From a virus: a DNA stretch of 63,314 nt. Shown here piece after piece: positions 1,940-63,314 of the stretch. The notes beneath the pieces are model-generated. The model was given only the letters and a program-made list of their open reading frames with translations, was not told the origin of the DNA and made no database searches. The translations under genes and the position numbers were made by a program. The stretch covers positions 1 to 63,314 of the IMG/VR virus record IMGVR_UViG_3300029536_000008; one strand, given 5' to 3'. Each line of letters begins with the position of its first letter. The first letter of the stretch is position 1.

Positions 1940-2513
1940 TCTTTTCAAGATAGAGGATTTGAACGAGTTACCCAATGCAGTAATGCGCATTATCGAAGGA
2001 GATATTAGAGAGCGTAATATAATCTATCACGAGTTAATGCGAATGAATGGTTATGATATGTCGTATGATTGGTTTCAAGAATTGTATGAAAACGAATTAT
2101 CGGAGCGAAAACAAAAGAAACAGGATTTTACGCCGAATACTCTTGGAGTTTTGTGTTCCAAACTCACAGGGCAATTAGGTTCAATTCACGAACCGACCGC
2201 CGGCAATGGCTCTATGATTATTGCAGATTGGTGGCAGCGTTGTCGCAAATTTCTTCCATATGAGCATTTTCCATCTCAACACATAGTGACATGTTGGGAG
2301 TTATCATCACGTTCTATTCCAATACTACTATTAAACCTTTCCATTCGTGGAATAATGGGATATGTGTATCATGGAGATGTGCTTGAAAATATTGTAAAGC
2401 AGAAATATATACTACTGAATGCCCACGATGACACATTGGGATTTTCGGATATAATAAAAGCTAATATAAATGATAAAATAGTATGCAATAATGAAATTGA
2501 AAGAAGTATATGA
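1917..2513 (+). CDS. N6-adenine DNA methyltransferase-like protein, N-terminal part only (HsdM-like, no NPPF/Y motif)
   Basis: QDFTPNTLGVL...IHEPTAGNGSMII (AdoMet motif X/I) and TCWELSSRSIPILLLNLSIRG...GDVLE (HsdM-like). The ORF stops after 198 aa, before any NPP[FY] catalytic motif, and overlaps the next gene by 23 nt. Confidence 0.55.
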   Translation: MKKEEVFSLFKIEDLNELPNAVMRIIEGDIRERNIIYHELMRMNGYDMSYDWFQELYENELSERKQKKQDFTPNTLGVLCSKLTGQLGSIHEPTAGNGSMIIADWWQRCRKFLPYEHFPSQHIVTCWELSSRSIPILLLNLSIRGIMGYVYHGDVLENIVKQKYILLNAHDDTLGFSDIIKANINDKIVCNNEIERSI

Positions 2514-3429
2514 GGCTTGGTTACCTATAAAAGAGAGACAAGTGAAAGCGTCTACATTGTCTGTTTATAAGATGATATATACAAATATCTTAAATCCGAT
2601 AATGGGCAATGAAGATGTTGAAAATCTCAATAAAAAAACTATTGTTCCATTTATTTACAAATTGATGGAGAAGGACGGGCAATCGTCAAAATACTGCAAT
2701 GATATTTTAATTGTATTAAAAATGCTCATACATTTCGCTTCCGAAGAATTTGAAATAAATGTACCAGATACTCGCTGGAAAATGACGTGGCCTACTAAAG
2801 CTAAAACAGGCGTATCTAAAATAGAAAGGTATACAAATGCTGAATACAAGAGAATAGTAGATTATGCCATAGAGAACCCGTCACCTCGCAATCTTGGAAT
2901 ACTGCTTACTATCTGCACAGGAATGAGAATAGGCGAAGTATGTGCTTTGCAATGGAAAGATGTTGATTTAGACTGCAAAATGATTCATGTAAATAAAACA
3001 ATGGAGCGTATTTATGACCCTGATACTAAAAAGACGTGGATTGAAATAGGCACTCCTAAAACCACATCATCTGATAGGTACATTCCTATTATGAAAGGTA
3101 TTCTTTCGATAGTGAAAAGGTTTAAATCGGTAAGTAATGATGATTATTATGTCTGCACCTGTTCGGATGCTCCTATTGAGCCTCGTACATTTCGGAATTA
3201 TTACAAAGCTTATATACTTGAAAAAGTCAAATTAGACCACTGTATTAAGTTTCATGGACTAAGACACACATTTGCTACAACTCTCATTGAAAATAAGGTG
3301 GATATAAAAACGACATCATCTATTTTGGGGCATTCAGATGTTAGTACAACTCTTAATATATATGTTCACCCTTCAGACGAAGCTAAGAGAGATGCTATGA
3401 ATGTGGGGCTGAAAAGAATCTTTAAATGA
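2491..3429 (+). CDS. Tyrosine recombinase (XerC/D-like, second integrase-family gene)
   Basis: 312 aa. Contains MRIGEVCALQWKDVDL and HGLRHTFATTLIENKVDIKTTSSILGHSDVSTTLNIYVH (R-H-R-Y catalytic signature). Confidence 0.9.
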   Translation: MKLKEVYEAWLPIKERQVKASTLSVYKMIYTNILNPIMGNEDVENLNKKTIVPFIYKLMEKDGQSSKYCNDILIVLKMLIHFASEEFEINVPDTRWKMTWPTKAKTGVSKIERYTNAEYKRIVDYAIENPSPRNLGILLTICTGMRIGEVCALQWKDVDLDCKMIHVNKTMERIYDPDTKKTWIEIGTPKTTSSDRYIPIMKGILSIVKRFKSVSNDDYYVCTCSDAPIEPRTFRNYYKAYILEKVKLDHCIKFHGLRHTFATTLIENKVDIKTTSSILGHSDVSTTLNIYVHPSDEAKRDAMNVGLKRIFK

Positions 3430-4853: not shown

Positions 4854-5126
4854 ATGATTACAACTATGGCAAAAGTATTTATAACAAAGTATGCCTTAAC
4901 AGAAGGTATTAAAGAGATAGAAACAGATATTATTAGAAGTAGATTTGAAGATAGAGAATATGTAAGGGATGGTTTATGTTCTTACTTCCGTATAGGGGAA
5001 AACGCATTCACCGATAAATCCGAAGCGTTGAAAAAGGCGGAAGAAATGAAGATTAGGAAAATCGCTTCTCTTCGTAAGCAGATGGAGAAACTTGAGAAAT
5101 TATCTTTTAAAGTAGAGGAGATTTGA
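4854..5126 (+). CDS. Hypothetical protein
   Basis: 90-aa ORF with a coiled-coil-like C-terminus. Confidence 0.55.
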   Translation: MITTMAKVFITKYALTEGIKEIETDIIRSRFEDREYVRDGLCSYFRIGENAFTDKSEALKKAEEMKIRKIASLRKQMEKLEKLSFKVEEI

Positions 5127-5128
5127 TT

Positions 5129-5323
5129 ATGGAACAAGAAAGAAAAATCGGAGAGGTATTTGAATATAATGGAGAAAAAATTATCGTGAAAAAAGATAGC
5201 GATTTTATATACGGATGCGATAAATGCGTCTTTAATGGTAGACCGGAATGCTGTAATTATTATTGCTTGTATTTTGAAAGACAAGATAAACAAGATGTGC
5301 ACTTTGAAAAAGTGGAGGATTGA
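5129..5323 (+). CDS. Small Cys-rich hypothetical protein
   Basis: ATG 3 nt after the upstream stop. The ORF track starts it at TTG 5123. Contains CDKCVFNGRPECCNYYC. Confidence 0.5.
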   Translation: MEQERKIGEVFEYNGEKIIVKKDSDFIYGCDKCVFNGRPECCNYYCLYFERQDKQDVHFEKVED

Positions 5324-5325
5324 TT

Positions 5326-5589
5326 ATGAAAGCAAACCTAATATTTTTTCTTGCGATATTCATCATATCAGCATTATTCATCGGTCATTTCCGACTGACA
5401 TTCTCACCGTTCAGTGTATCCTTTCTCTATTGGCATAGGACTGTAGGAGTTACTCTTATCGTTGCAGGATGCTTGGTTTACAACATAGGTGAGCATATAT
5501 CAGGCTACAAGAAAGGACTGGATGAAGGTATGGAGATTGTTTTGAAAGAGTTAAAAGAAAGATACAATGAAGAAGATAATGTTCAATGA
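5326..5589 (+). CDS. Small membrane protein
   Basis: Two hydrophobic segments (LIFFLAIFIISALFIG; VGVTLIVAGCLVY). The ORF track starts it at TTG 5320. Confidence 0.55.
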   Translation: MKANLIFFLAIFIISALFIGHFRLTFSPFSVSFLYWHRTVGVTLIVAGCLVYNIGEHISGYKKGLDEGMEIVLKELKERYNEEDNVQ

Positions 5590-30549: not shown

Positions 30550-30888
30550 GTATAATTTTAATGTTAAACAATGTTATTTATATAATGGCAGCAAAATAAC
30601 TGATAACTGTTTACAAATCCAAATAAATCCACATGTATCTTTACTTTGAAGGTAAAAAAGTTGTTTCCCCTTGCTTTTTTCAAAAATAGTTTGTATGTTT
30701 GTAACGTCAAAACATTCATAGGGGCGGCAAACTCCTATGGCTTCAATCATTGGAGTTGTTTTTTTGCCAATACATACCAAGTAGTATCATAAATTTAAGA
30801 TATTGCACCTACCGAGTGGGGTAACGGAAACGTCCCCAAAATAATCCTATGGATGTTTTGACAGCTCGTAGTAGGTGCATTTTTTGTT

Positions 30889-31758
30889 ATGTCAAAACAT
30901 CCTATTCAAGTCCTAAGCGAAACAGAGCTGCTGGGGCACAAATTCACGGTTTACGGAACTGCCGAAAATCCGTTGTTTCTTGCTAAAGAAGTGGCAGAGT
31001 GCATTGATTATGCGAAAACATCGCAAGGTTATTATGATGTATCAAGAATGGTAGGCACTGTAGATGAGGAAGAAAAACATCTACGAACAATCTTCGTAGA
31101 TGGTAGAAATTACGAAATGTGGTTCTTAACCGAAGATGGTTTGTATGAGGTCTTATTCCAATCCCGCAAACCAATCGCCAAAGAATTTAAGAAAGGCGTA
31201 AAGGAGATTCTAAAGACAATCCGCAAGACTGGCGGCTACATTGCCACCAAGCAGGACGACACTCCCGAAGAAATCATGGCACGTGCTCTAACCATCGCAC
31301 AAGCCACCCTTGCCAAGAGAGAGGAACGGTTAAAGCAGCTTGAAGCCCAAACGGAGCAACAGCAAGCCACCATTAAACTGCAAGACAAGGAAATCAAGGA
31401 GGCTGCTCCGAAAGTCAGCTACTACGACAACCATCTGTTGAGCGTCAATGCCATGACAACCACTCAAATCTCAAAAGAGATAGGGATGTCGGCAGAAAAA
31501 CTGAACAACAAACTGAAAGAACTTGGAATACAGTTCAAACAGTCGGGGCAGTGGCTCTTAAAATCACCATACGACAAATGGGGTATGCATGAAACGAGAA
31601 CCAATATTTTCACAAGTGAAAGAGGTAATACCCATACCAACACATATACTGTATGGACGCAGAAAGGTAGACGCTTCATTATTGCTCTATATGAAAATGA
31701 TTGGGACGTGAAGAAAGCCATTAAGCAGATAAAAGGAGAATTAGAACCCGCTGCGTAA
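30889..31758 (+). CDS. Antirepressor (BRO-N domain + KilA-C domain)
   Basis: N-terminus FTVYGTAENPLFLAKEVAECIDY...EDGLYEVLFQSRKPIAKEFKKGV. C-terminus YYDNHLLSVNAMTTTQISKEIGMSAEKLNNKLKELGIQFK. Confidence 0.8.
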   Translation: MSKHPIQVLSETELLGHKFTVYGTAENPLFLAKEVAECIDYAKTSQGYYDVSRMVGTVDEEEKHLRTIFVDGRNYEMWFLTEDGLYEVLFQSRKPIAKEFKKGVKEILKTIRKTGGYIATKQDDTPEEIMARALTIAQATLAKREERLKQLEAQTEQQQATIKLQDKEIKEAAPKVSYYDNHLLSVNAMTTTQISKEIGMSAEKLNNKLKELGIQFKQSGQWLLKSPYDKWGMHETRTNIFTSERGNTHTNTYTVWTQKGRRFIIALYENDWDVKKAIKQIKGELEPAA

Positions 31759-41440: not shown

Positions 41441-42646
41441 TTACTTCTTAAAAACATTTACATAATCGATAACTTTCCGATTAGCTTTATCTACTTTTCG
41501 CATGTCAAAATGGATATAGATGTCAGTCGTTGTGCTGTTCGCCCAACTATGCCCAAGCGCGTGGGCGATTACCTCTTTGGGGACATCGAGTTCTGCCGCT
41601 ACCGTGGCCCATGTGTGGCGCGCCCAATATGAGGACAAATCAGGAAATAAAGGATTTCTACTCTTTTTCCCTCCCAATCCCTTCCTTTCTGTCTCTCCAA
41701 TCTGTTTTAACCCTATTCCCATACGATGCAGGAAATCCTTGTAATTTCCGTATTCATCCATTATATTAAGAAGATAATCCTTCCCTTTGTATTTCTCAAT
41801 TATAGCCTGCGCTTCCGGTTCTACTTTAATACTGTATAATTTCCCCGTCTTAGCTCTTTTATATTCAAAACGACCATTTACCAATGCAGAATGTTTTGCG
41901 TTAAACAAATCGGCTGCATTTACTCCTATGAGATAGAACATGAGCATGAACATATCCCTATATCTAATCTGGTATTCCTCACATGGATAATCTCTCAATA
42001 ACCTAAGTTGTTCTGCTGTAAGACTACGTTTCCGGGTTTCCTCTTTCTTTATTGAAAACCTTCTGAATGGATACAATGTTGTGTACTCCTCATCAATGGC
42101 GTAGTTGAATACACTACGTATGTTCCGTAAATGAATAGCATAGGCATTAACCTTCATCGTCTTTGCCATCCACGCTTCAAAGTTTTCCAGCCATGACTTA
42201 TCCATGCTCTCAAAAGTACAATGACTATCGTATTCCTCAATCTTGTTTCTTGTGGTTGTATATATAGACTTAGTTCCCTGATTGGTTTTCTTGGAAACGA
42301 ATTCATCAAGATAATAGAGAAACGTCTTTTGGTTTTCAACCTTGCTACTTATAGCGTCCTCTATCAACTTCTTCAAAGCTTTGTCTGTAGTTGATTTCAA
42401 CTTTTCTTGTTGCTCTAAAGTAAATATTACTGTTTCCGCCTTGTTTATTATTCCACGGGCAACTATATTCCTCGGCTTGTAATTTTGTGCACGCACAGAA
42501 TATTCATTCCCATTCCATTCTTTTTCCGATGCACTTAGCTGCGTAGCTATCATTATTTGTTTGTTGTGGAATACATTCAACTTTATCGGATAAGTGCCAT
42601 CTTTTTTTTGCCTTCTTTTATCAAGGTAGAATTTAACCGTTGCCAT
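41441..42646 (-). CDS. int: Tyrosine integrase (Bacteroidetes arm-binding type)
   Basis: MATVKFYLDKRRQKKDGTYPIKL arm-binding N-terminus. ARHTWATVAAELDVPKEVIAHALGH...TTDIYIH catalytic region. Confidence 0.9.
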   Translation of the reverse strand: MATVKFYLDKRRQKKDGTYPIKLNVFHNKQIMIATQLSASEKEWNGNEYSVRAQNYKPRNIVARGIINKAETVIFTLEQQEKLKSTTDKALKKLIEDAISSKVENQKTFLYYLDEFVSKKTNQGTKSIYTTTRNKIEEYDSHCTFESMDKSWLENFEAWMAKTMKVNAYAIHLRNIRSVFNYAIDEEYTTLYPFRRFSIKKEETRKRSLTAEQLRLLRDYPCEEYQIRYRDMFMLMFYLIGVNAADLFNAKHSALVNGRFEYKRAKTGKLYSIKVEPEAQAIIEKYKGKDYLLNIMDEYGNYKDFLHRMGIGLKQIGETERKGLGGKKSRNPLFPDLSSYWARHTWATVAAELDVPKEVIAHALGHSWANSTTTDIYIHFDMRKVDKANRKVIDYVNVFKK

Positions 42647-42664
42647 ATATCTATGTTTTTAGTT

Positions 42665-42928
42665 TATGCAAATCTGAAAATTTGCATAGAATTTGCATAC
42701 AAAGATAAGATTAAAGGGGTTTAAAAGGGTCTAAAAGCGGAATGTTATTCAGCATACATAAAAAAATAAGCAGCTACTTTATTTGTAACTGCTTGATTTT
42801 CAAGAGAGCGGCAAGCGAGGCTCGAACTCGTGACCCTCAGCTTGGGAAGCTCTTTTTTAGTGCATCTATAATATTATATATCAAATATTTATTTTACATA
42901 CAAAAACAATTTGCATACAATTTGCATA
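42665..42928. other. attP region: tRNA-derived core flanked by five copies of ATTTGCATA (arm-type sites)
   Basis: tatgcaaat at 42665-42673 (inverted). aatttgcata at 42679-42688, 42690-42699, 42908-42917 and 42919-42928. Confidence 0.6.
42807..42850 (-). other. 3' ~44 nt of a tRNA-Gly(CCC)-like gene (anticodon loop to acceptor end) = probable attP core
   Basis: - strand: gc-TTCCCAA-gctga-gggtc-acgag-TTCGAGC-ctcgc-ttgccgc-t. Resembles E. coli tRNA-Gly from the anticodon loop onward. Similarity stops 5' of the anticodon stem. Confidence 0.6.
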
Positions 42929-42963
42929 CATTCTATTTTTAACCCTATTCAACAATGCTAATT

Positions 42964-44341: not shown

Positions 44342-45037
44342 TTAAACAGCCTTTCTTCTCACACTGAATAGGTCTTGTATTTCTTCCACAGATTTGTTCA
44401 GAGCGTTAAATCGCCTTTGTAAATCCTCAAATTGCGCTTCATACATGACTACTGTCGTTTCATACATTCGCTTCCAGTATTCAGCAGTTTCCGGAGATGG
44501 CAAATCTTCCACATCTTTTTCAGACAAAGACGAATGTGAAGTTTCATTGTCAAGGAACATTGGACCTTTGCCGGTGAGGATGTAGTTGGCGTTGACTTTA
44601 TACATTTGACAAAACTCTTGCAACGTGTTCATAGACACACCGCATATTCCACGTCTTATTTTAGACATGGTGGCCTTTGATAAATTTTCTAAAGTGTTCC
44701 ACACCTTATAATCGGTAAGTTCCAACTTTTCTATCGTCTCTAAAAAACGATAAGTATAATCATTAAACGCTTCATTATTAATATCATGTTCGGCATTATT
44801 TTTTTCATTGCCCAAATAGATATATTTCATATTTGCATCTGGAAAACATTCTGCAAACTTAGATAAGAACTTCTTGCTTGGCTCTTGTATCCCCCTTTTT
44901 ATTTTAGTGAACATAGCCTCTTTAACCCCAGTGCTCTTCGCTATATTATAGAAAGATACTCCCATCCTTTCGACTTCTTCTAGAAATCTTTTTGTTAAAT
45001 CACTAAGATTTGCTTCGTTTTTATTTTTACTTTCCAT
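44342..45037 (-). CDS. CI-like repressor with two tandem HTH domains and a C-terminal coiled coil
   Basis: FLEEVERMGVSFYNIAKSTGVKEAMFTKIKRG...MKYIYLG and a second unit FLETIEKLELTDYKVWNTLENLSKATMSKIRRG...ANYILTGKGPMFL. Confidence 0.75.
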   Translation of the reverse strand: MESKNKNEANLSDLTKRFLEEVERMGVSFYNIAKSTGVKEAMFTKIKRGIQEPSKKFLSKFAECFPDANMKYIYLGNEKNNAEHDINNEAFNDYTYRFLETIEKLELTDYKVWNTLENLSKATMSKIRRGICGVSMNTLQEFCQMYKVNANYILTGKGPMFLDNETSHSSLSEKDVEDLPSPETAEYWKRMYETTVVMYEAQFEDLQRRFNALNKSVEEIQDLFSVRRKAV

Positions 45038-46118: not shown

Positions 46119-46592
46119 ATGAGTAAATATATAGCTTATACAGACGGTGGATGTCAGAACACTTCGGTTTATGGCGAAGGTGGTTCTGCATACCTAATAA
46201 TCCATAACGGAGAAGTGATAAAAACCGCTTCTAAGGGATTTCTTAATACGACTAACAATCGTATGGAGATGCTTGCTATCCTAAGTGCCGTATTTTCCGT
46301 TCTGGATGGTTCTGATTTGGTCGTTTTTTCGGACAGCCAATATGCTATCAATGTTTTTTCAGGAGCATGGAAGGCTACTAAAAACAGAGACCTAATCATA
46401 AAATACACAGAACGAATCAAAAGCCTTAGCTCCGTGTCCTTCCGTTGGGTCAAAGGTCACAACGGAGACAGATACAACGAAATGGTTGATTCCATGTGTA
46501 CTAACTCCATCAAAGAGATAGTCAGTATGCACAGCTTACCAAAAGACCGTTTCAAGAAAAAGAAAATACAGCTATCCATCGAATTTGAATAA
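46119..46592 (+). CDS. rnhA: Ribonuclease HI
   Basis: AYTDGGC...NNRMEMLAIL...VFSDSQYAINV...WVKGHNGDRYNEMVDSM (DEDD catalytic pattern). Confidence 0.85.
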   Translation: MSKYIAYTDGGCQNTSVYGEGGSAYLIIHNGEVIKTASKGFLNTTNNRMEMLAILSAVFSVLDGSDLVVFSDSQYAINVFSGAWKATKNRDLIIKYTERIKSLSSVSFRWVKGHNGDRYNEMVDSMCTNSIKEIVSMHSLPKDRFKKKKIQLSIEFE

Positions 46593-47465: not shown

Positions 47466-47498
47466 TTTGTGCTTTCTAAAATAGATAGTATCTTTGCA
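47466..47498 (+). promoter_or_regulatory. Bacteroides-type promoter: TTTG (47466-47469), 19-nt spacer, TATCTTTG (47489-47496)
   Basis: Contains the same 17-mer tagatagtatctttgca as 45040-45056. Followed by the short hairpin gttgtt-aatc-aacaac and a T-run. Confidence 0.55.
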
Positions 47499-48349: not shown

Positions 48350-48562
48350 ATGGGAAGAACGAAATCTGTAGGAAAGGTAGAGCCGGTCAACAAACTATGG
48401 CTTTCCGCTAAGGAAGCAATGGCATACTTAGGATGCAGTGATAAACTGTTGGAAAAACTAAGGAACAATGCCGAAATATCATTTTCCCAATATAACAAAC
48501 GTACCATTTGGTACGACTTGAAAAGCATTGAAAGGTTCATAGAAAGAAACCGCGTTGTGTGA
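48350..48562 (+). CDS. Excisionase-like HTH protein (HTH_17/MerR-like)
   Basis: KLWLSAKEAMAYLGCSDKLLEKLRNNAEISFSQYNKRTIWYDLKSIERFI. Confidence 0.6.
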   Translation: MGRTKSVGKVEPVNKLWLSAKEAMAYLGCSDKLLEKLRNNAEISFSQYNKRTIWYDLKSIERFIERNRVV

Positions 48563-48572
48563 ACAACGCTCC

Positions 48573-48682
48573 TTCCTCTTAGCTCAGCCAGGCAGAGCAT
48601 CGCTATGGTTACTTGTTCGAAGGTTTAGTATCCGGTAATTTCCGGTTAGCGAAGGTCGCACGTTCGAGTCGTGCAGAGGGAG
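48573..48682 (+). tRNA. tRNA gene with 43 nt in place of the 7-nt anticodon loop (a 36-nt excess)
   Basis: Acceptor ttcctct/agaggga. D arm gctc-agccaggca-gagc. Anticodon stem tcgct (48600-48604) / agcga (48648-48652) enclosing 43 nt. Variable loop aggtc. T arm gcacg-ttcgagt-cgtgc. Confidence 0.6.
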
Positions 48683-48684
48683 CA

Positions 48685-49543: not shown

Positions 49544-49647
49544 TGCGACATGGCGGAATGGTAGACGTAGCACTCTATGATAGGAATGTCAAACCTTAGA
49601 TGTGCGGAGCTTGACAACTCGTCCCGGTTCGAGTCCGGGTGTCGCAA
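49544..49647 (+). tRNA. Type II (Leu-like) tRNA gene with 28 nt between the anticodon-stem halves
   Basis: Acceptor tgcgaca/tgtcgca. D region gcggaatggtagacgt (close to E. coli tRNA-Leu). Stem gcac (49570-49573) / gtgc (49602-49605) enclosing 28 nt. Long variable arm ggagcttgacaactcgt. T arm cccgg-ttcgagt-ccggg. Confidence 0.6.
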
Positions 49648-49740
49648 CATCTTCACTACAGATGAAGTATTTGTTTAGTCGTAGCCGGGCGGTCTGTGAA
49701 GATAGTCCGGTTTTTCTTGAAACCAATTAATAACAATCAT

Positions 49741-50217
49741 ATGAAAACATTACAATTAAGTGAACAAAAAGCCCGTGAACTATATCGGAGCGGTTCAAAA
49801 GAATTAAAAACAGTATTGGAAGAATCTTTTGGAAAGGATTTCTTTTCACAAGACGTTACAGAAAGAGTGAAAACCTACCTTGATGCTTGCCACGAGTTGG
49901 GAAGGGAGCCACTCGATGAGAAAAAGCTATTGGAGTTAGGCTTGACGGAACACGATATTGCTTATCAAAAGCTGGCTATCGTTACGGAAGCTCTAAATGA
50001 AGGTCAGAAACTTAATGTATGCGATGCTAACGTGAAACGCTGGTATCCGTGGTTCAAGCCTAATGGGTCTCCTTCCTCTTTCGCTTTCTACGATTCGTTT
50101 TGCGTTTGTGCGTGTGCGGGTGCGGGTAGCGGGTCTCGCCTTTGTTTGAAAAGCGAAAAGCTTTCCAATTATTGCGGGAAACAATTCATTGATTTGTGGA
50201 AACAATTTATTCTATAA
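49741..50217 (+). CDS. DGR target protein 1 (VR1 at C-terminus)
   Basis: 158 aa from ATG 49741 (the ORF track starts at GTG 49696). Paralogue of 50236-50709. C-terminus ...SPSSFAFYDSFCVCACAGAGSGSRLC. Confidence 0.75.
   Translation: MKTLQLSEQKARELYRSGSKELKTVLEESFGKDFFSQDVTERVKTYLDACHELGREPLDEKKLLELGLTEHDIAYQKLAIVTEALNEGQKLNVCDANVKRWYPWFKPNGSPSSFAFYDSFCVCACAGAGSGSRLCLKSEKLSNYCGKQFIDLWKQFIL
50067..50146 (+). repeat. DGR variable repeat VR1
   Basis: 80-nt alignment to the TR. 14 mismatches, all at TR adenines. Confidence 0.85.
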
Positions 50218-50235
50218 CCCTATAAACTTACAATT

Positions 50236-50709
50236 ATGACTTTAAATGTAGATAAAAAGAACGCTTTAAAGGCTTGGAGAGAAGCGGACAATAAAGGAAA
50301 GCAGATGCTTGAAAATCTATACGGCAAAGAAATATTTGCCAATCAAAACGTAATGGATAGAATCAAAACGTTTGAAGACGCAATGGAAGAAACAGGAAGA
50401 AAAGGTGTCCCTGATTTTTCAGATTTACCCAAAGACATGCGCAGGCATTTCATTGCGTTATATAAAATGGAAGTTATTACGGAAGCTCTGAATGAAGGCT
50501 GGAAAGCAGACTGGGATAACTCGGATGAGAACAAGTATTATCCCTATTTCATTATGTCTCCTTCCTCTTTCGCTTTCTACGATTCGTATTACGTTCTTGC
50601 GTTTGCGGATGCGGGTAGCTGGTCTCGCCTTTGTTATAAAACACGCGGACTTGCGGAATATTCGGCAAAAAAATTTATTGACATTTGGAAAGACATCCAG
50701 ATAGGATAA
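50236..50709 (+). CDS. DGR target protein 2 (VR2 at C-terminus)
   Basis: 157 aa. C-terminus ...SPSSFAFYDSYYVLAFADAGSWSRLC. Confidence 0.75.
   Translation: MTLNVDKKNALKAWREADNKGKQMLENLYGKEIFANQNVMDRIKTFEDAMEETGRKGVPDFSDLPKDMRRHFIALYKMEVITEALNEGWKADWDNSDENKYYPYFIMSPSSFAFYDSYYVLAFADAGSWSRLCYKTRGLAEYSAKKFIDIWKDIQIG
50556..50635 (+). repeat. DGR variable repeat VR2
   Basis: 80-nt alignment to the TR. 11 mismatches, all at TR adenines. Confidence 0.85.
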
Positions 50710-50732
50710 GCATACAAAGGTCGTCTGCCCTT

Positions 50733-50812
50733 GTCTCCTTCCTCTTTCGCTTTCAACGATTCGAATTACGATAATGCGTATGCGAATGCAGGTAGCAGGT
50801 CTCACCTATGTT
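50733..50812 (+). repeat. DGR template repeat (TR)
   Basis: Non-coding copy of the VRs with 17 adenines, mostly in AAC/AAT/TAC/TAT-type codon positions (SPSSFAFNDSNYDNAYANAGSRSHLC). Lies between target 2 and the RT. Confidence 0.85.
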
Positions 50813-50914
50813 GTAAAACTTCAAAGGGCAGAAACCTCACCTCTTGGTGGAAAACAACAATTCAAACGGTGTTGGTAGGTTTAACCCGAAAACTCTTATT
50901 AGAAAACAAAGGCT

Positions 50915-51901
50915 ATGAAACGCTTTGGGAATTTATATCATCGCATCTATGATATAGATAATCTTTATCTTGCTTATTCTAAAGCTAAAAAGGGCAAAGG
51001 AAAAACGTATGGAGTTATTCAGTTTGAGAAAGATTTGGATAACAACATACTTTCCTTGCACAAAGAATTGTCGGAAAGAAGCTATATCACTTCTCAATAC
51101 ACGACTTTCATTATACATGACCCAAAGGAGCGTGAGATATACAGGCTACCATTTCGTGACCGTGTTGTGCATCACGCTATAATGAACATCCTTGAAGATA
51201 TATGGACACCGATTTTCATTTCACACACTTATTCCTGTATCAAAGGAAAAGGCATTCATGGAGTGGTTAAACATTTGAAGAAAGACCTGAAAGATGCTGA
51301 TGGAACAAAATATTGTCTGAAAATGGATATTCGCAAATATTATCCGTCAATAGACCACTCCATACTGAAACGTATCATACGTAAGAAAATAAAAGACATA
51401 AAGGTGCTTGCCCTTCTGGATGGTATTATAGATTCAGCACCGGGTGTTCCTATCGGTAACTATCTTTCCCAATTCTTTGCGAATCTATATCTTTCTTATT
51501 TCGACCATTGGATTAAGGAAGAAAAGCGAATGCCATATTATTACAGATATGCCGATGACATGGTGATACTTTCCAGCAGCAAGAAAGAGTTACACAGTAT
51601 TCTTCTTGAAATCAACTCATATCTTAATGAGAAACTGCACCTGCAATTAAAGGGCAACTATCAGTTTTTTCCGGTAGATAGCAGGGGAATAGATTTCGTG
51701 GGATACGTATTTTTTCATACGCATACATTGATGCGGAAATCCATAAAGAAAAACTTTTGCCGTAAAGTATCTGCATTAAACAAAAAGAATATAACCCCGC
51801 ATGATTACAAAATGGCAATCTGTTCATGGCTGGGTTGGGCGAAGCATTGTAATTCTAAGCACCTTATTAAAAAGATTATTAAGAATGAAAAGATTCAGTG
51901 A
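50915..51901 (+). CDS. DGR reverse transcriptase
   Basis: 328 aa. Contains IYRLPFRDRVVHHAI, KMDIRKYYPSI, PIGNYLSQFFANLYL (DGR-type motif 4) and YYRYADDMVIL (YADD). Confidence 0.9.
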   Translation: MKRFGNLYHRIYDIDNLYLAYSKAKKGKGKTYGVIQFEKDLDNNILSLHKELSERSYITSQYTTFIIHDPKEREIYRLPFRDRVVHHAIMNILEDIWTPIFISHTYSCIKGKGIHGVVKHLKKDLKDADGTKYCLKMDIRKYYPSIDHSILKRIIRKKIKDIKVLALLDGIIDSAPGVPIGNYLSQFFANLYLSYFDHWIKEEKRMPYYYRYADDMVILSSSKKELHSILLEINSYLNEKLHLQLKGNYQFFPVDSRGIDFVGYVFFHTHTLMRKSIKKNFCRKVSALNKKNITPHDYKMAICSWLGWAKHCNSKHLIKKIIKNEKIQ

Positions 51902-56686: not shown

Positions 56687-56713
56687 CTTTGTTAACCTGC
56701 CTGTCCGGTCTGT

Positions 56714-56877
56714 GAAGATGGGGCGGGCGAAAATGGGGGTGCGCAGTGGAGTGCTTTTGACTTTCGAGAGGTGCACATGGTAGAAAGTACGGTACGTGAG
56801 ATATAAGGAGTAATTAACCTTAGAAGTAGCGCAAAAGGATAAGTCCTTAATTGGGTGTTCGAATCGCCCCATCTCCA
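56714..56877 (+). ncRNA. tRNA-like element: acceptor-like helix, variable-arm hairpin and T arm, but no D stem and an 84-nt internal segment
   Basis: gaagatg/catctcc (one A-C mismatch). tgcgc (56740-56744) / gcgca (56829-56833). aagga-taag-tcctt. gggtg-ttcgaat-cgccc. Confidence 0.35.
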
Positions 56878-56927
56878 CATAAATGTGAGCCACACATAAA
56901 TGGCAAGGGTTAGTAAATAATGGTTGT

Positions 56928-61787: not shown

Positions 61788-63314
61788 ATGGAAATGAAGA
61801 AAAGCGAATTGACACACGGCTCTCTGTTCAGCGGCATCGGTGGCCCGGAAATAGCTGCCGAGATAATGGGCTGGAAAAACGTGTTCCATTGTGAAATAAA
61901 CCCGTTCGGGAGAAAAATACTTGATTATTGGTTTCCAAACAGCAAAAGTTATGAAGACATCACGAAAACAGATTTTACAGAGTGGCGGGGAAAAATCAAT
62001 GTCCTCACCGGAGGGTTCCCCTGCCAGCCTTTTTCTTGTGCCGGACAGAGAAAGGGAGCGGAAGATGACCGCTACCTCTGGCCGGAAATGCTACGAGCGA
62101 TACGGGAGATTCAGCCCGATTGGGTTGTTGGTGAAAACGTTGCTGGAATCCTCTCGATGGTACAACCCGGCAGTGAAACTGCGTTGGGACGTGAAAAATC
62201 TCTGTTCGGAGAGGTTGACCGAAAAAGAATATTGCATCGGCAGGAATACGTCGTCGAAACAGTGTGTAACGACCTTGAACGTGAAGGATATTCCGTCCAA
62301 CCGGTTGTTATTCCGGCTTGTGCCGTCGGAGCGCCGCACAGAAGGGACCGTGTCTTCTTTATTGCGAGAAGAATACAAGACAATAACAACAACATCGGGA
62401 GTGGATATACTTGTAGATTCGGAAGATTTTCCGTTTCTGAATCAATGGAAATGGAAGATAAACAATTCAGGGTATGTTTACAGAACAATCAGAGCGAAAG
62501 AAGATGGAAAGAAATGGAAGACTATCTTGATGCACAGATTGATTTGCTGTCCGAAGGAAAACGAGGAAGTGGACCATATCAACAGATGCAAAACGGACAA
62601 CAGAAAGCAAAATCTTCGGATATTAGCTCATTGGGAAAATCTTCACAATCGGAAGAAAGGTTCAGGAGTAAGGAAACCGAAGGGACGGAACAAATGGCAT
62701 GCGATAATCTATGTGAACAGGAAAAGGATTCACCTCGGATTTTTCGATACAAAAGAGGAGGCGATGAATGCAAGGTTGAATGCGGAGAGAAAATTGTTGC
62801 CCACCGTGCAGACGCAGGGGTTGAAGGTATGCAACGAAAATGGGAAGACAACATTCTATCCGGTAGAACTGCTCCCGACACCGACAGCCATAGATGGAGG
62901 AACGGGAAGAATCAACAAGTCACTATCGCCGAACGCAAAGGAACGGCCAACATTGGCACTTTCCGCGAAGATGGGACTTCTTCCTACTCCCAATGCTCGG
63001 GAAGCGGACAAATATACAAAGAAGTACAATCCGAACAGCCAAATGGGCACAGCTTTGACAGCAATGGCGGTAAACGGAATGTTGCCTACTCCAAGAGCCA
63101 ACAAAGTGAACGATATAAATCTGAACAACCTACATCTGGCACAACGGAACAAAGGGAACTTGGAAGAAGCTGTTGCGAAAATAATTCAAAATACGCCATT
63201 AGGGAATGGAAAAACTTCCCTACTCAATCCCCTGTTTGTAGCCGAGATGATGGGATTTCCACCAGATTGGACGGTATTGCCTTTTCAAAGTGGCGGCAGG
63301 AATCGATAAAGGCA
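61788..63314 (+). CDS. DNA (cytosine-5)-methyltransferase, frame-A ORF (runs off the window end and continues at 3-194)
   Basis: Absent from the ORF track because it has no stop inside the window. Manual translation: MEMKKSELTHGSLFSGIGG (motif I), LTGGFPCQPFS (IV), VVGENVAG (VI), APHRRDRVFFIA (VIII), all before 62367. Afterwards the sequence is hydrophilic and low-information until KAYGNAILPQV after the junction. Confidence 0.7.
   Translation, partial: MEMKKSELTHGSLFSGIGGPEIAAEIMGWKNVFHCEINPFGRKILDYWFPNSKSYEDITKTDFTEWRGKINVLTGGFPCQPFSCAGQRKGAEDDRYLWPEMLRAIREIQPDWVVGENVAGILSMVQPGSETALGREKSLFGEVDRKRILHRQEYVVETVCNDLEREGYSVQPVVIPACAVGAPHRRDRVFFIARRIQDNNNNIGSGYTCRFGRFSVSESMEMEDKQFRVCLQNNQSERRWKEMEDYLDAQIDLLSEGKRGSGPYQQMQNGQQKAKSSDISSLGKSSQSEERFRSKETEGTEQMACDNLCEQEKDSPRIFRYKRGGDECKVECGEKIVAHRADAGVEGMQRKWEDNILSGRTAPDTDSHRWRNGKNQQVTIAERKGTANIGTFREDGTSSYSQCSGSGQIYKEVQSEQPNGHSFDSNGGKRNVAYSKSQQSERYKSEQPTSGTTEQRELGRSCCENNSKYAIREWKNFPTQSPVCSRDDGISTRLDGIAFSKWRQESIKA
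61921..63309 (+). CDS. Frame-B ORF (+1 relative to frame A): HNH-AP2 module fused to MTase target-recognition / motif IX-like region
   Basis: ORF track 462 aa. VDSEDFPFLNQWKW...LMHRLI...VDHINRCKTDNRKQNLR (HNH), KWHAIIYVNRKRIHLGFFDTKEEAMNA (AP2), LLPTPTAIDGG / LLPTPNAREA / MLPTPRANK, NPLFVAEMMGFPPDWT. Confidence 0.65.
   Translation: MIIGFQTAKVMKTSRKQILQSGGEKSMSSPEGSPASLFLVPDRERERKMTATSGRKCYERYGRFSPIGLLVKTLLESSRWYNPAVKLRWDVKNLCSERLTEKEYCIGRNTSSKQCVTTLNVKDIPSNRLLFRLVPSERRTEGTVSSLLREEYKTITTTSGVDILVDSEDFPFLNQWKWKINNSGYVYRTIRAKEDGKKWKTILMHRLICCPKENEEVDHINRCKTDNRKQNLRILAHWENLHNRKKGSGVRKPKGRNKWHAIIYVNRKRIHLGFFDTKEEAMNARLNAERKLLPTVQTQGLKVCNENGKTTFYPVELLPTPTAIDGGTGRINKSLSPNAKERPTLALSAKMGLLPTPNAREADKYTKKYNPNSQMGTALTAMAVNGMLPTPRANKVNDINLNNLHLAQRNKGNLEEAVAKIIQNTPLGNGKTSLLNPLFVAEMMGFPPDWTVLPFQSGGRNR
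62401..62796 (+). mobile_element. HNH-AP2 homing-endonuclease-like module embedded in the MTase locus (frame B)
   Basis: Possible GTG start at 62401. HNH_3 plus AP2 domain signatures as above. Confidence 0.55.
63208..63314. repeat. Second copy of the 107-bp terminal overlap (= 1-107)
   Basis: Same 107 nt as the window start. Confidence 0.95.

Follow-up and report, generated by a model that had tools for sequence, protein, structure and literature searches.

How should a gene be read which has the frame of a tRNA, and 43 nt in place of the 7-nt anticodon loop? The gene in question, here called E1, resides in the IMG/VR virus record IMGVR_UViG_3300029536_000008, the 63,314 nucleotides of which were analyzed as a whole and are referred to as the window. 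To our knowledge, all introns described so far in tRNAs of bacteria and phages are self-splicing group I introns. Short tRNA inserts of other kinds are the subject of one earlier report, on Lak megaphages, and are unexplained. If E1 is spliced, it denotes an unrecognized tRNA splicing route in bacteria; if unspliced, phages repeatedly turned tRNA genes into non-decoding mimics or punctuation marks, wholly missed by standard annotation. We favor, with a probability of about 0.5, the view that E1 is a tRNA-derived, non-decoding RNA element of a phage early operon, and not a tRNA awaiting splicing, as judged from the sequences of E1 and its relatives.

E1 is a tRNA-Arg-derived cloverleaf featuring an expanded anticodon arm. 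The element was delimited on the sequence and by ARAGORN with intron detection (option -i), and is made by the following parts:

48573-48684, + strand: E1, discriminator and CA included
48573-48579 and 48675-48681: acceptor stem ttcctct/agaggga, 7 bp, one U-G pair at 2:71
48582-48598: D arm gctc/agccaggca/gagc, with A14, G18, G19 and A21
48600-48652, + strand: anticodon arm, stem tcgct/agcga plus an extra a-t pair (48605:48647) around 41-43 nt
48600-48604 and 48648-48652: anticodon-stem halves tcgct and agcga, with exactly 43 nt between them (48605-48647)
48606-48639, + strand: 34-nt insert as set by ARAGORN (tggttac...ggtaat), the boundaries of which are fixed by no insert-free allele
48640-48646, + strand: canonical-looking anticodon loop UUCCGGU (U33, CCG Arg, G37), at the 3' end of the insert
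48658-48674: T arm gcacg-TTCGAGT-cgtgc
48682: discriminator G, followed by CA

The frame is that of a canonical elongator tRNA, with stems of 7 bp (acceptor), 4 bp (D) and 5 bp (T). Both U8 and A9 are found, position 26 is an a, and the variable loop is aggtc, C48 facing G15. The signature bases U8, A14, G18G19, A21, G53, T54, Psi55, C56, A58 and C61 are all conserved in E1. A preliminary description of the locus had rated acceptor, D arm, T arm and variable loop as canonical, and had placed 43 nt between the anticodon-stem halves; every detail matches the sequence. The cloverleaf corresponds to the minimum-free-energy fold of the 113-nt E1 RNA, with a z-score of only -1.4 against shuffles. 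Pair 3:70 is C-G. The D loop lacks A20, which in E. coli is the main determinant for arginyl-tRNA synthetase.

Run with default settings, ARAGORN does not call a single tRNA along the window, and the Rfam tRNA model RF00005 does not match at E1 even at E<=10. Intron detection, proposed as a check in the preliminary description, changes the picture, as ARAGORN then calls E1, at default stringency, as a tRNA-Arg(CCG) hosting a 34-nt insert at 48606-48639. The 68.9 bits assigned to E1 by a frame-only covariance model provide no independent evidence, as such a value follows from the way the model was built, E1 being one of its 11 training sequences.

No combination of the two ends of the E1 anticodon arm gives a canonical 7-nt loop on the 5-bp stem. 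The loop UUCCGGU is workable only with a 6-bp stem, as a 5-bp stem leads to C33 or U37. The 34-nt insert contains a TTCGAA palindrome and the first of two TCCGGT direct repeats, which are spaced by 10 bp in the common allele (A) and by 14 bp in a second allele (B). The insert also carries a near-duplicate of the loop, TATCCGGTAA beside TTTCCGGTTA, and the CCGG of the loop is able to pair with the CCGG at 48632-48635. Two internal hairpins had been pointed out before: ccgg/ccgg pairs indeed, and ggttact/agtatcc pairs in 6 of 7 positions, with one U-U mismatch. The 5' flank AUGGUUA had been suggested to provide a GGU (Thr) anticodon. This reading is weaker, because an Arg assignment fits the E1 body; the loop UUCCGGU fits far better than AUGGUUA. 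The end of the D arm and the anticodon stem of E1 are also found in tRNA-Arg(CCU) genes of other bacteria.

Related phages were gathered via the AAA_24 ATPase, and then scanned for elements. Diverged homologues of E1 were identified at the equivalent place in related Bacteroides phages, after a small helix-turn-helix (HTH) gene and before the AAA_24 recombination module, and several paralogous elements may be found in one phage. The preliminary description covered one element; to this are added a second element 0.9 kb downstream and the family residing in related phages. Members referred to below are listed here, loci of other phages being denoted by L numbers:

49544-49649, + strand: E2, the second element of the window, same layout as E1, Leu-type class II body
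E1 subfamily B: 14 loci, insert of 49-50 nt, stem UCGCC/GGUGA
E1 subfamily C: L302, 28-nt middle
E1 subfamily D: L272/L273, 29-nt middle
Val-like lineage: L194/L173, L281, L296-L301
Further homologues: L305, L288, L278 and more

E1 is found with the same insert in 96/96 IMG/VR stretches having its 3' half. The insert is identical in ~90/100 related contigs, which disagrees with a randomly decayed copy, the case that in the preliminary description would have spoken against the gene. The element is almost invariant and its flanks are mosaic, homology ending directly after ...GAGGGAGCA. Frames of diverged homologues are kept by compensation. In an alignment of 11 frames, partly chosen for their ability to pair, 96.5% of the cells are paired, compared to 39-51% in slid controls, and double-sided changes occur in 16/21 pairs. 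Compensation within a single lineage is cleaner evidence than the whole alignment: the Val-like lineage alone features changes at both sides of pairs 4:69, 5:68 and 29:41. Pair 31:39 changes from U-A in A to C-G in B. The analysis of covariation in homologous phages, suggested earlier, has thus revealed compensatory changes that keep the frame. Because the insert is found in all the 96 stretches and the frame is kept by compensation in diverged homologues, E1 is more than a chance product. The frame-only covariance model yields 48 matches in 81 sources, all 48 on the early-gene strand.

The middle of the elements varies. It measures 12-53 nt in class-I-type elements, and up to ~190 nt in ARAGORN calls of Leu-type relatives. 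A and B inserts have in common the blocks GGUUA, UUCG, GUUUAGU and two copies of UCCGGU, and are ~60% identical, as counted by hand from the alignment; no common fold beyond the stem was found by RNAalifold on A and B inserts. C and D middles have in common only the first (AUGRYUA) and the last (RGU) bases, which mark the beginning and the end of nearly all middles. A canonical anticodon heptamer lies beside the stem in four cases only, E1-A (with a 6-bp stem), E1-B, L281 and E2, and matches the body in type, being CCG on the Arg body of E1, UAC on the Val-like body of L281, and UAG on the Leu body of E2. No anticodon loop is found beside the stem in the homologues C, D, L194 and L296-298. In three instances the agreement of anticodon and body is too specific for chance, and shows that the elements descend from real tRNA-Arg, tRNA-Leu and tRNA-Val genes. 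Since sister lineages lost the anticodon yet hold the frame, the anticodon is not what selection keeps.

Most inserts start with an AUG right after the stem, and have an in-frame stop within 3-12 codons (48605-48628 in E1; L302, L272, L194, L296-L298). L298 differs from L297 by one +1 and one -1 indel, and the frame is restored. Reading the inserts as mini-ORFs (open reading frames) was judged insufficient, as subfamily B lacks the AUG, and AU-rich sequence is in any case rich in stops.

The region upstream of E1 includes:

47466-47496, + strand: Bacteroides-type promoter match TTTG ... TAnnTTTG, the nearest upstream of E1 on the same strand, heading the operon
48350-48562, + strand: HTH_17 (excisionase-like) gene, 70 aa, last ORF of the small early operon that ends in E1
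48552-48569, + strand: stable hairpin gcgttg-tgtgaa-caacgc, which covers the HTH_17 stop codon and ends 3 nt before E1

E1 starts 10 nt past the stop codon of the HTH_17 gene. Bacteroides-type promoter matches number 10 in the window vs 3.9 expected, and none is found between the match at 47466-47496 and E1. Scans for sigma-70 promoters and terminators are uninformative for a Bacteroides phage. Hairpins upstream of the elements are recurrent. In 10/15 subfamilies the element is preceded by a strong hairpin (<= -10 kcal/mol), the end of which lies 3-10 nt from the 5' end of the element; 45-nt windows drawn at random from these loci reach this value in 11% of the cases (P ~5e-7, the 15 subfamilies being not fully independent). 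Many of these hairpins have the common apical sequence GGUCUGUGAAGAU(A/G)G, found in 2 copies in the window vs 0.64 expected when up to 2 mismatches are allowed. At the opposite side, the discriminator is followed by CA (G-CA or A-CA) in almost all family members, and never by an encoded CCA (48682-48684, 49647-49649, 56877-56879).

As to hairpins with the GGUCUGUGAAGAU(A/G)G sequence, they feature a GNRA-type apical loop, usually followed by a U-rich run, and mark the window at 49684-49712 and 56696-56729. They reside 3-10 nt upstream of tRNA-like elements in L173, L269, L278, L281, L288 and L296. Such hairpins could be terminators, boxB-like antitermination sites or 3'-end protectors. Homology between mosaic phages ends directly after the discriminator-CA.

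These data may be accommodated as follows. The ancestor would have been a tRNA-Arg(CCG) gene. Selection would have kept the parts read by tRNA-processing enzymes, which are the acceptor/T-arm stack, the D/T elbow, the discriminator and the proximal anticodon stem, while the distal anticodon arm, freed from the decoding constraint, may have turned into a lineage-specific expansion segment; the anticodon arm would be irrelevant to RNase P, RNase Z and the CCA-adding enzyme. E1 would be transcribed as the 3' part of the operon starting at ~47466. Cleavage by RNase P at 48572/48573 would leave an upstream mRNA ending in the protective hairpin 48552-48569, and RNase Z and the CCA-adding enzyme would finish the 3' end after G48682. 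The outcome would be a punctuated transcript and a stable tRNA-like RNA of ~110 nt. The freed RNA may possibly work in trans, for example as a decoy for enzymes or toxins acting on tRNA acceptor ends.

Several observations suggest that E1 is non-decoding. The frame is intact, homologues are syntenic, changes are compensated, middles vary, and several homologues have no anticodon loop beside the stem. The loop of allele A is out of register by one bp, and E2 is found with two unrelated middles on an identical scaffold. The matches on the early-gene strand (48/48), the stretch without intervening promoter, the upstream hairpins, and the missing splicing enzyme or ligase among 40 ORFs point in the same direction. 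The L-shaped frame is, in the sequences compared, maintained across the family, presumably as a substrate for RNase P, RNase Z and the CCA-adding enzyme. As in a punctuation element, acceptor, T arm and elbow are intact within what looks like a longer transcript, and the anticodon region appears dispensable.

Other observations weigh against a non-decoding E1. Three independent elements keep an anticodon loop matching the identity of the body, as a spliced tRNA would; the loops of E1, E2 and L281 each sit directly 5' of the 3' stem strand, and would have to be regarded as vestiges only. CGG and CUA are used in the phage about twice as much as in adjacent host genes (the host sample is small), so that cognate tRNAs would be useful. 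The insert is not simply drifting, because A and B inserts have common blocks, including the two TCCGGT copies. The choice of sequences able to pair softens the count of covarying pairs, processing by RNase P and RNase Z is a prediction from the fold, and the upstream hairpin could be a terminator instead of a 3'-end protector.

The same anticodon matches underlie the view, which we hold to be unlikely, that E1 is a real intron-containing tRNA gene, from the transcript of which a protein-dependent pathway excises the 34-nt insert located at 31/32. An endonuclease and a host ligase such as RtcB would produce tRNA-Arg(CCG), with the predicted junction ...GCAUCGCUA/UUCCGGUUAGCG, and E2 would be likewise converted into tRNA-Leu(UAG). 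In line with this, ARAGORN -i calls both E1 and E2 at default stringency, anticodon and body agree in E1, E2 and L281 at the same relative position each time, and subfamily B, once 43 nt are taken out, has an anticodon arm canonical in every respect (5-bp stem, 7-nt loop). The CCGG of the insert pairs with the CCGG of the anticodon in A as well as in B, as in archaeal and eukaryal pre-tRNA introns. CGG makes up 10-14% of the Arg codons in the phage vs 5% in the host flank, and unexplained tRNA introns have a precedent in Lak megaphages, which have Bacteroidota hosts (PMC6784885). In contrast, removal of the insert from the dominant allele A gives a 6-bp stem, or a loop with C33 or U37 on a 5-bp stem. 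Homologues C, D, L194 and L296-298 would be left without a usable anticodon loop, the long version of E2 would carry a Phe anticodon on a Leu body, and the D loop of E1 is devoid of A20. A group I intron was ruled out by the size (34-43 nt), the lack of Rfam Intron_gpI matches, and the junction bases (cgcta/tggtt and ggtaat/ttccgg), since no U precedes the 5' site and the last base of the insert is not G; that the segment is far too short for such an intron had been correctly stated in the preliminary description. An archaeal-type bulge-helix-bulge (BHB) intron was rejected as well: 3 strict motifs were found vs 3.2 in shuffles, none spanning 48605/48639, and the same holds for E2. No splicing endonuclease (EndA/Sen) or RNA ligase was detected among 40 ORFs of the window scanned against Pfam and PHROGs. 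No uninterrupted E1 allele was found in viral, species-representative genome or JGI metagenome collections; the genome matches are only unrelated tRNA-Arg(CCU) genes of Planctomycetota and other taxa. The 6-bp stem, the loop-less homologues, and the lack of a BHB and of an uninterrupted allele speak against the intron to be spliced out that the preliminary description implied. What stands of its interpretation is a tRNA-shaped gene in which a segment of ~34-43 nt replaces the loop; the Thr and the spliced-intron readings are not supported. More generally, we deem it improbable that Bacteroidota or their phages own a protein-dependent tRNA splicing, neither group I nor BHB, which removes short inserts just 5' of the anticodon loop. 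If true, the bacterial world would gain its first short spliced tRNA introns, and the Lak megaphage introns and many interrupted IMG/VR tRNA genes would also be explained. Lysogens are culturable, because the related phages come from Bacteroides isolates.

The function may also be placed in the insert, E1 being a trans-acting tRNA mimic with the expanded arm as the effector. The idea overlaps with the one preferred here, and in this specific form has a low probability. The RNA could be a decoy for tRNA-targeting defense enzymes (acceptor-end nucleotidyltransferase toxins, anticodon nucleases), or an immunity or regulatory RNA freed by RNase P, like P1 c4 or P4 CI, and variation of the arm among phages would reflect an arms race or a specificity determinant. 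Hypervariable middles on conserved frames fit the idea, as do the blocks common to A and B inserts, the AUGRYUA...RGU layout of nearly all middles, the presence of several paralogous elements per phage, and the location among small early genes without assigned function. It is opposed by the lack of a secondary structure common to A and B inserts, of matches to known RNA families, and of an identified partner protein. A c4-like cis-antisense regulator was rejected, as the longest complement to either insert in the window measures 11 nt and is within the shuffled range. E1 may be, in turn, a dead tRNA gene with an insertion or duplication in the anticodon loop, kept because the phage group is young and the tRNA sequence serves as a recombination joint. 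Thousands of samples have a nearly invariant A-type element and neighbor gene, and conservation within A is therefore of little weight. Further, flanks are mosaic and homology stops exactly after ...GAGGGAGCA, the pair TATCCGGTAA/TTTCCGGTTA is of the kind that slippage or duplication would make, and some homologues have defects, such as a U10-U25 mismatch in B and C1-A72 in L352. Against such a relic, which we regard as rather implausible, stand the compensatory changes which hold the frames in lineages long devoid of an anticodon loop, the strand bias of the 48 model matches, the non-random association of upstream hairpins with the elements, and the similar remodeling of Arg, Leu and Val-like types at equivalent genome positions. 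Decay should delete and break stems, rather than expand the element to 190 nt leaving acceptor, D and T arms intact.

Finally, E1 could work as DNA, serving as attachment site of the phage (attP), as the copy of a host tRNA into which the phage integrates, or as an operator bound by the neighboring HTH protein. Anticodon loops of tRNA genes, with the symmetric stem at both sides, are where many integrases carry out the crossover; E1 comes after an excisionase-like HTH gene, and two TCCGGT direct repeats lie 10 bp apart in allele A. The hypothesis is very improbable. Eight long contigs (0.2-1.2 Mb) host the prophage integrated beside genes for a TonB-dependent receptor, FecR, a sigma factor, prolyl-tRNA synthetase (ProRS) and a HEPN/MNT pair, and both E1 and E2 are intact ~5 kb inside all of them. 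The prophage-host junction lies between the host HEPN/MNT toxin-antitoxin pair, beside ProRS, and a phage gene encoding a 187-aa protein (L360-L367, ~4900-5400), and no tRNA gene is found at the junction in the eight prophages. Because E1 is intact in prophages and the junction adjoins the 187-aa gene, attP is placed beside the integrase gene (int), at ~42647-42963, and not at E1, which is 6 kb away from int. An integration scar was ruled out on the same grounds, and the attP version of the hypothesis is largely refuted. The spacing of the TCCGGT repeats is 14 bp in allele B, and T- and D-loop signatures, as the strand bias, point to RNA.

E2 deserves a separate description. It has a GGCGGAAUGGUAGACG D arm, a long variable arm and A73, and the stem GCAC/GUGC encloses 28 nt, with CUAUGAU as the first and CUUAGAU (Leu UAG loop) as the last bases. 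About a dozen related phages have an identical acceptor/D/T scaffold, in which an unrelated middle of 140 nt (e.g. L012 5962-6150) replaces the 56 nt that in E2 span the anticodon and variable arms. The long middle contains GAA (Phe-type) heptamers on the Leu-type body. A K-turn (C/D-like) fold would be conceivable in E2 on paper, and is absent from E1. Leu-type scaffolds with a long anticodon helix were noticed in related Bacteroides phages, at L319 4022-4176, L326 4523-4706, L327 5195-5379 and L334 7775-7929; their helices are capped by a nested mini tRNA-like module, with its own acceptor, D and T arms, a 'tRNA inside a tRNA' design which is also that of the Lak megaphage introns. The window has a third, weaker tRNA-like element:

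56735-56878, + strand: tRNA-like element called by ARAGORN at relaxed threshold only

The acceptor stem (gggggtg/catctcc) and the T arm (gggtg-TTCGAAT-cgccc) enclose a ~100-nt middle, the discriminator is A, followed by CA, and the element is directly preceded by the hairpin 56696-56729, which has the apical sequence GGTCTGTGAAGATGG.

Interrupted tRNA-like genes are common in IMG/VR, as a generic scan identified >120 loci for a single D-arm type. One recurrent insert, 45-62 nt in length, has the structure 'A-rich + hairpin + (U)ACAGCAA(U)', and resides in tandem tRNA arrays of other gut phage contigs (L183 6304-6877; also L155, L177, L193, L212, L231, L238, L245, L256, L259, L264). ACAGCAA inserts are found at varying positions (26/27 or 38/39), and the motif recurs downstream of genes. 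Genes of this type score 42-47 bits on the Rfam tRNA model, with a local gap.

Among known RNAs, tRNA-like processing signals include mitochondrial tRNA punctuation, the 3' end of MALAT1/mascRNA, and the RNase P-processed P1 c4 and P4 CI RNAs. As in these, E1 is a tRNA-shaped module in what looks like a longer transcript, the acceptor/T half would be decisive, and a putative protective structure lies just upstream; that cleavage by RNase P sets the end of the neighbor RNA and frees a small stable RNA is predicted for E1. Unlike them, E1 has a full canonical D arm and an expanded anticodon arm, and no antisense target was found in the window. The combination of a tRNA-like acceptor/T domain with a large non-tRNA part replacing the anticodon arm is reminiscent of transfer-messenger RNA (tmRNA) and of YrlA, a bacterial Y RNA-like tRNA mimic. 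tmRNA requires G3-U70, pseudoknots and a tag reading frame; it was rejected because pair 3:70 is C-G in E1, and ARAGORN -m gives only a permuted minus-strand call at the 70% threshold, which is not credible. YrlA ends in a Ro-binding stem, and its gene adjoins rsr; it was rejected because no Rfam match is found at E<=10, and the ends of E1 lie in the acceptor stem.

Group I introns of bacterial tRNAs (Leu UAA, fMet, Arg CCU, Ile) likewise interrupt the anticodon-loop region, an Arg isoacceptor included, but measure ~200 nt or more and have a catalytic core (P3-P9), in contrast to the 34-43 nt of the E1 insert. Archaeal BHB introns, processed by EndA and RtcB, resemble the E1 insert in being tens of nt long, in residing away from 37/38, and in the ability to pair with the anticodon. 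They feature a strict motif or the relaxed HBh' version, with both junctions in 3-nt bulges 4 bp apart. E1 differs in lacking a BHB, in having a bacterial host and no splicing endonuclease gene among the ORFs scanned, and because removal of the insert from the common allele gives a non-canonical arm.

The closest parallel is provided by the 'enigmatic introns' of tRNA genes of Lak phages, which are 540-kb megaphages (Devoto et al. 2019, PMC6784885). Lak inserts measure 79-114 nt, are placed at 37/38, and contain a 5' mini-hairpin, AAAUUAAAC, and a nested tRNA-like module with T arm; the insert is present in some alleles and missing from others (PMC6784885). Both cases concern phages of Bacteroidota hosts, tRNA genes missed by standard bacterial finders, and non-group-I inserts in the anticodon arm, identical across related genomes and with no mechanism assigned. 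Some E2 relatives (L319 4022-4176, L326-L328) have a nested tRNA-like T arm in the insert, as Lak inserts do. In contrast, the E1 insert is shorter (34-43 nt), lacks the mini-hairpin, AAAUUAAAC and the nested module, is located 5' of the loop (31/32), has no known insert-free allele, and resides in a temperate phage of ~63 kb. In the literature no description of these elements was found beyond PMC6784885, nor a follow-up of Lak introns or a case in temperate Bacteroides phages. E1 extends the phenomenon past megaphages to an extremely common temperate Bacteroides phage of the gut, in the form of a family providing a comparative signal.

The window corresponds to a temperate Bacteroides-type phage of ~63 kb, with partial matches to Bacteroides phages BS-TP2 and BS-TP4, and looks like phage DNA throughout, without host flanks. 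The exact HTH_17 protein is found in 5385 blocks of the assembly index. Other features of the window are:

172-702 and 61921-63309: two HNH/NUMOD homing-endonuclease-like genes, at the window ends
2491-3429, + strand: second tyrosine recombinase (XerC-like)
30803-30882, + strand: Rfam c4-2 RNA (P1 c4 antisense clan, 53.5 bits), directly upstream of ORF 30889-31758
41441-42646, - strand: tyrosine integrase
44342-45037, - strand: repressor-like gene
46119-46592: RNase H
49696-51901, + strand: complete diversity-generating retroelement (DGR), downstream of E1
50067-50152 and 50556-50641: variable repeats (VR) of two paralogous DGR target genes
50733-50818: template repeat (TR) of the DGR
50833-50909: Rfam RT-17 RNA, between TR and the reverse transcriptase (RT) gene
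50915-51901: RT gene

VR/TR differences are found at TR adenines, and the DGR is followed by a recombination/replication module. The hypothesis that E1 needs the neighboring DGR was rejected, as syntenic homologues reside in phages without DGR, and the insert is unrelated to TR and VR. The c4-2 RNA suggests that a P1-type antisense immunity module is present in this Bacteroides phage.

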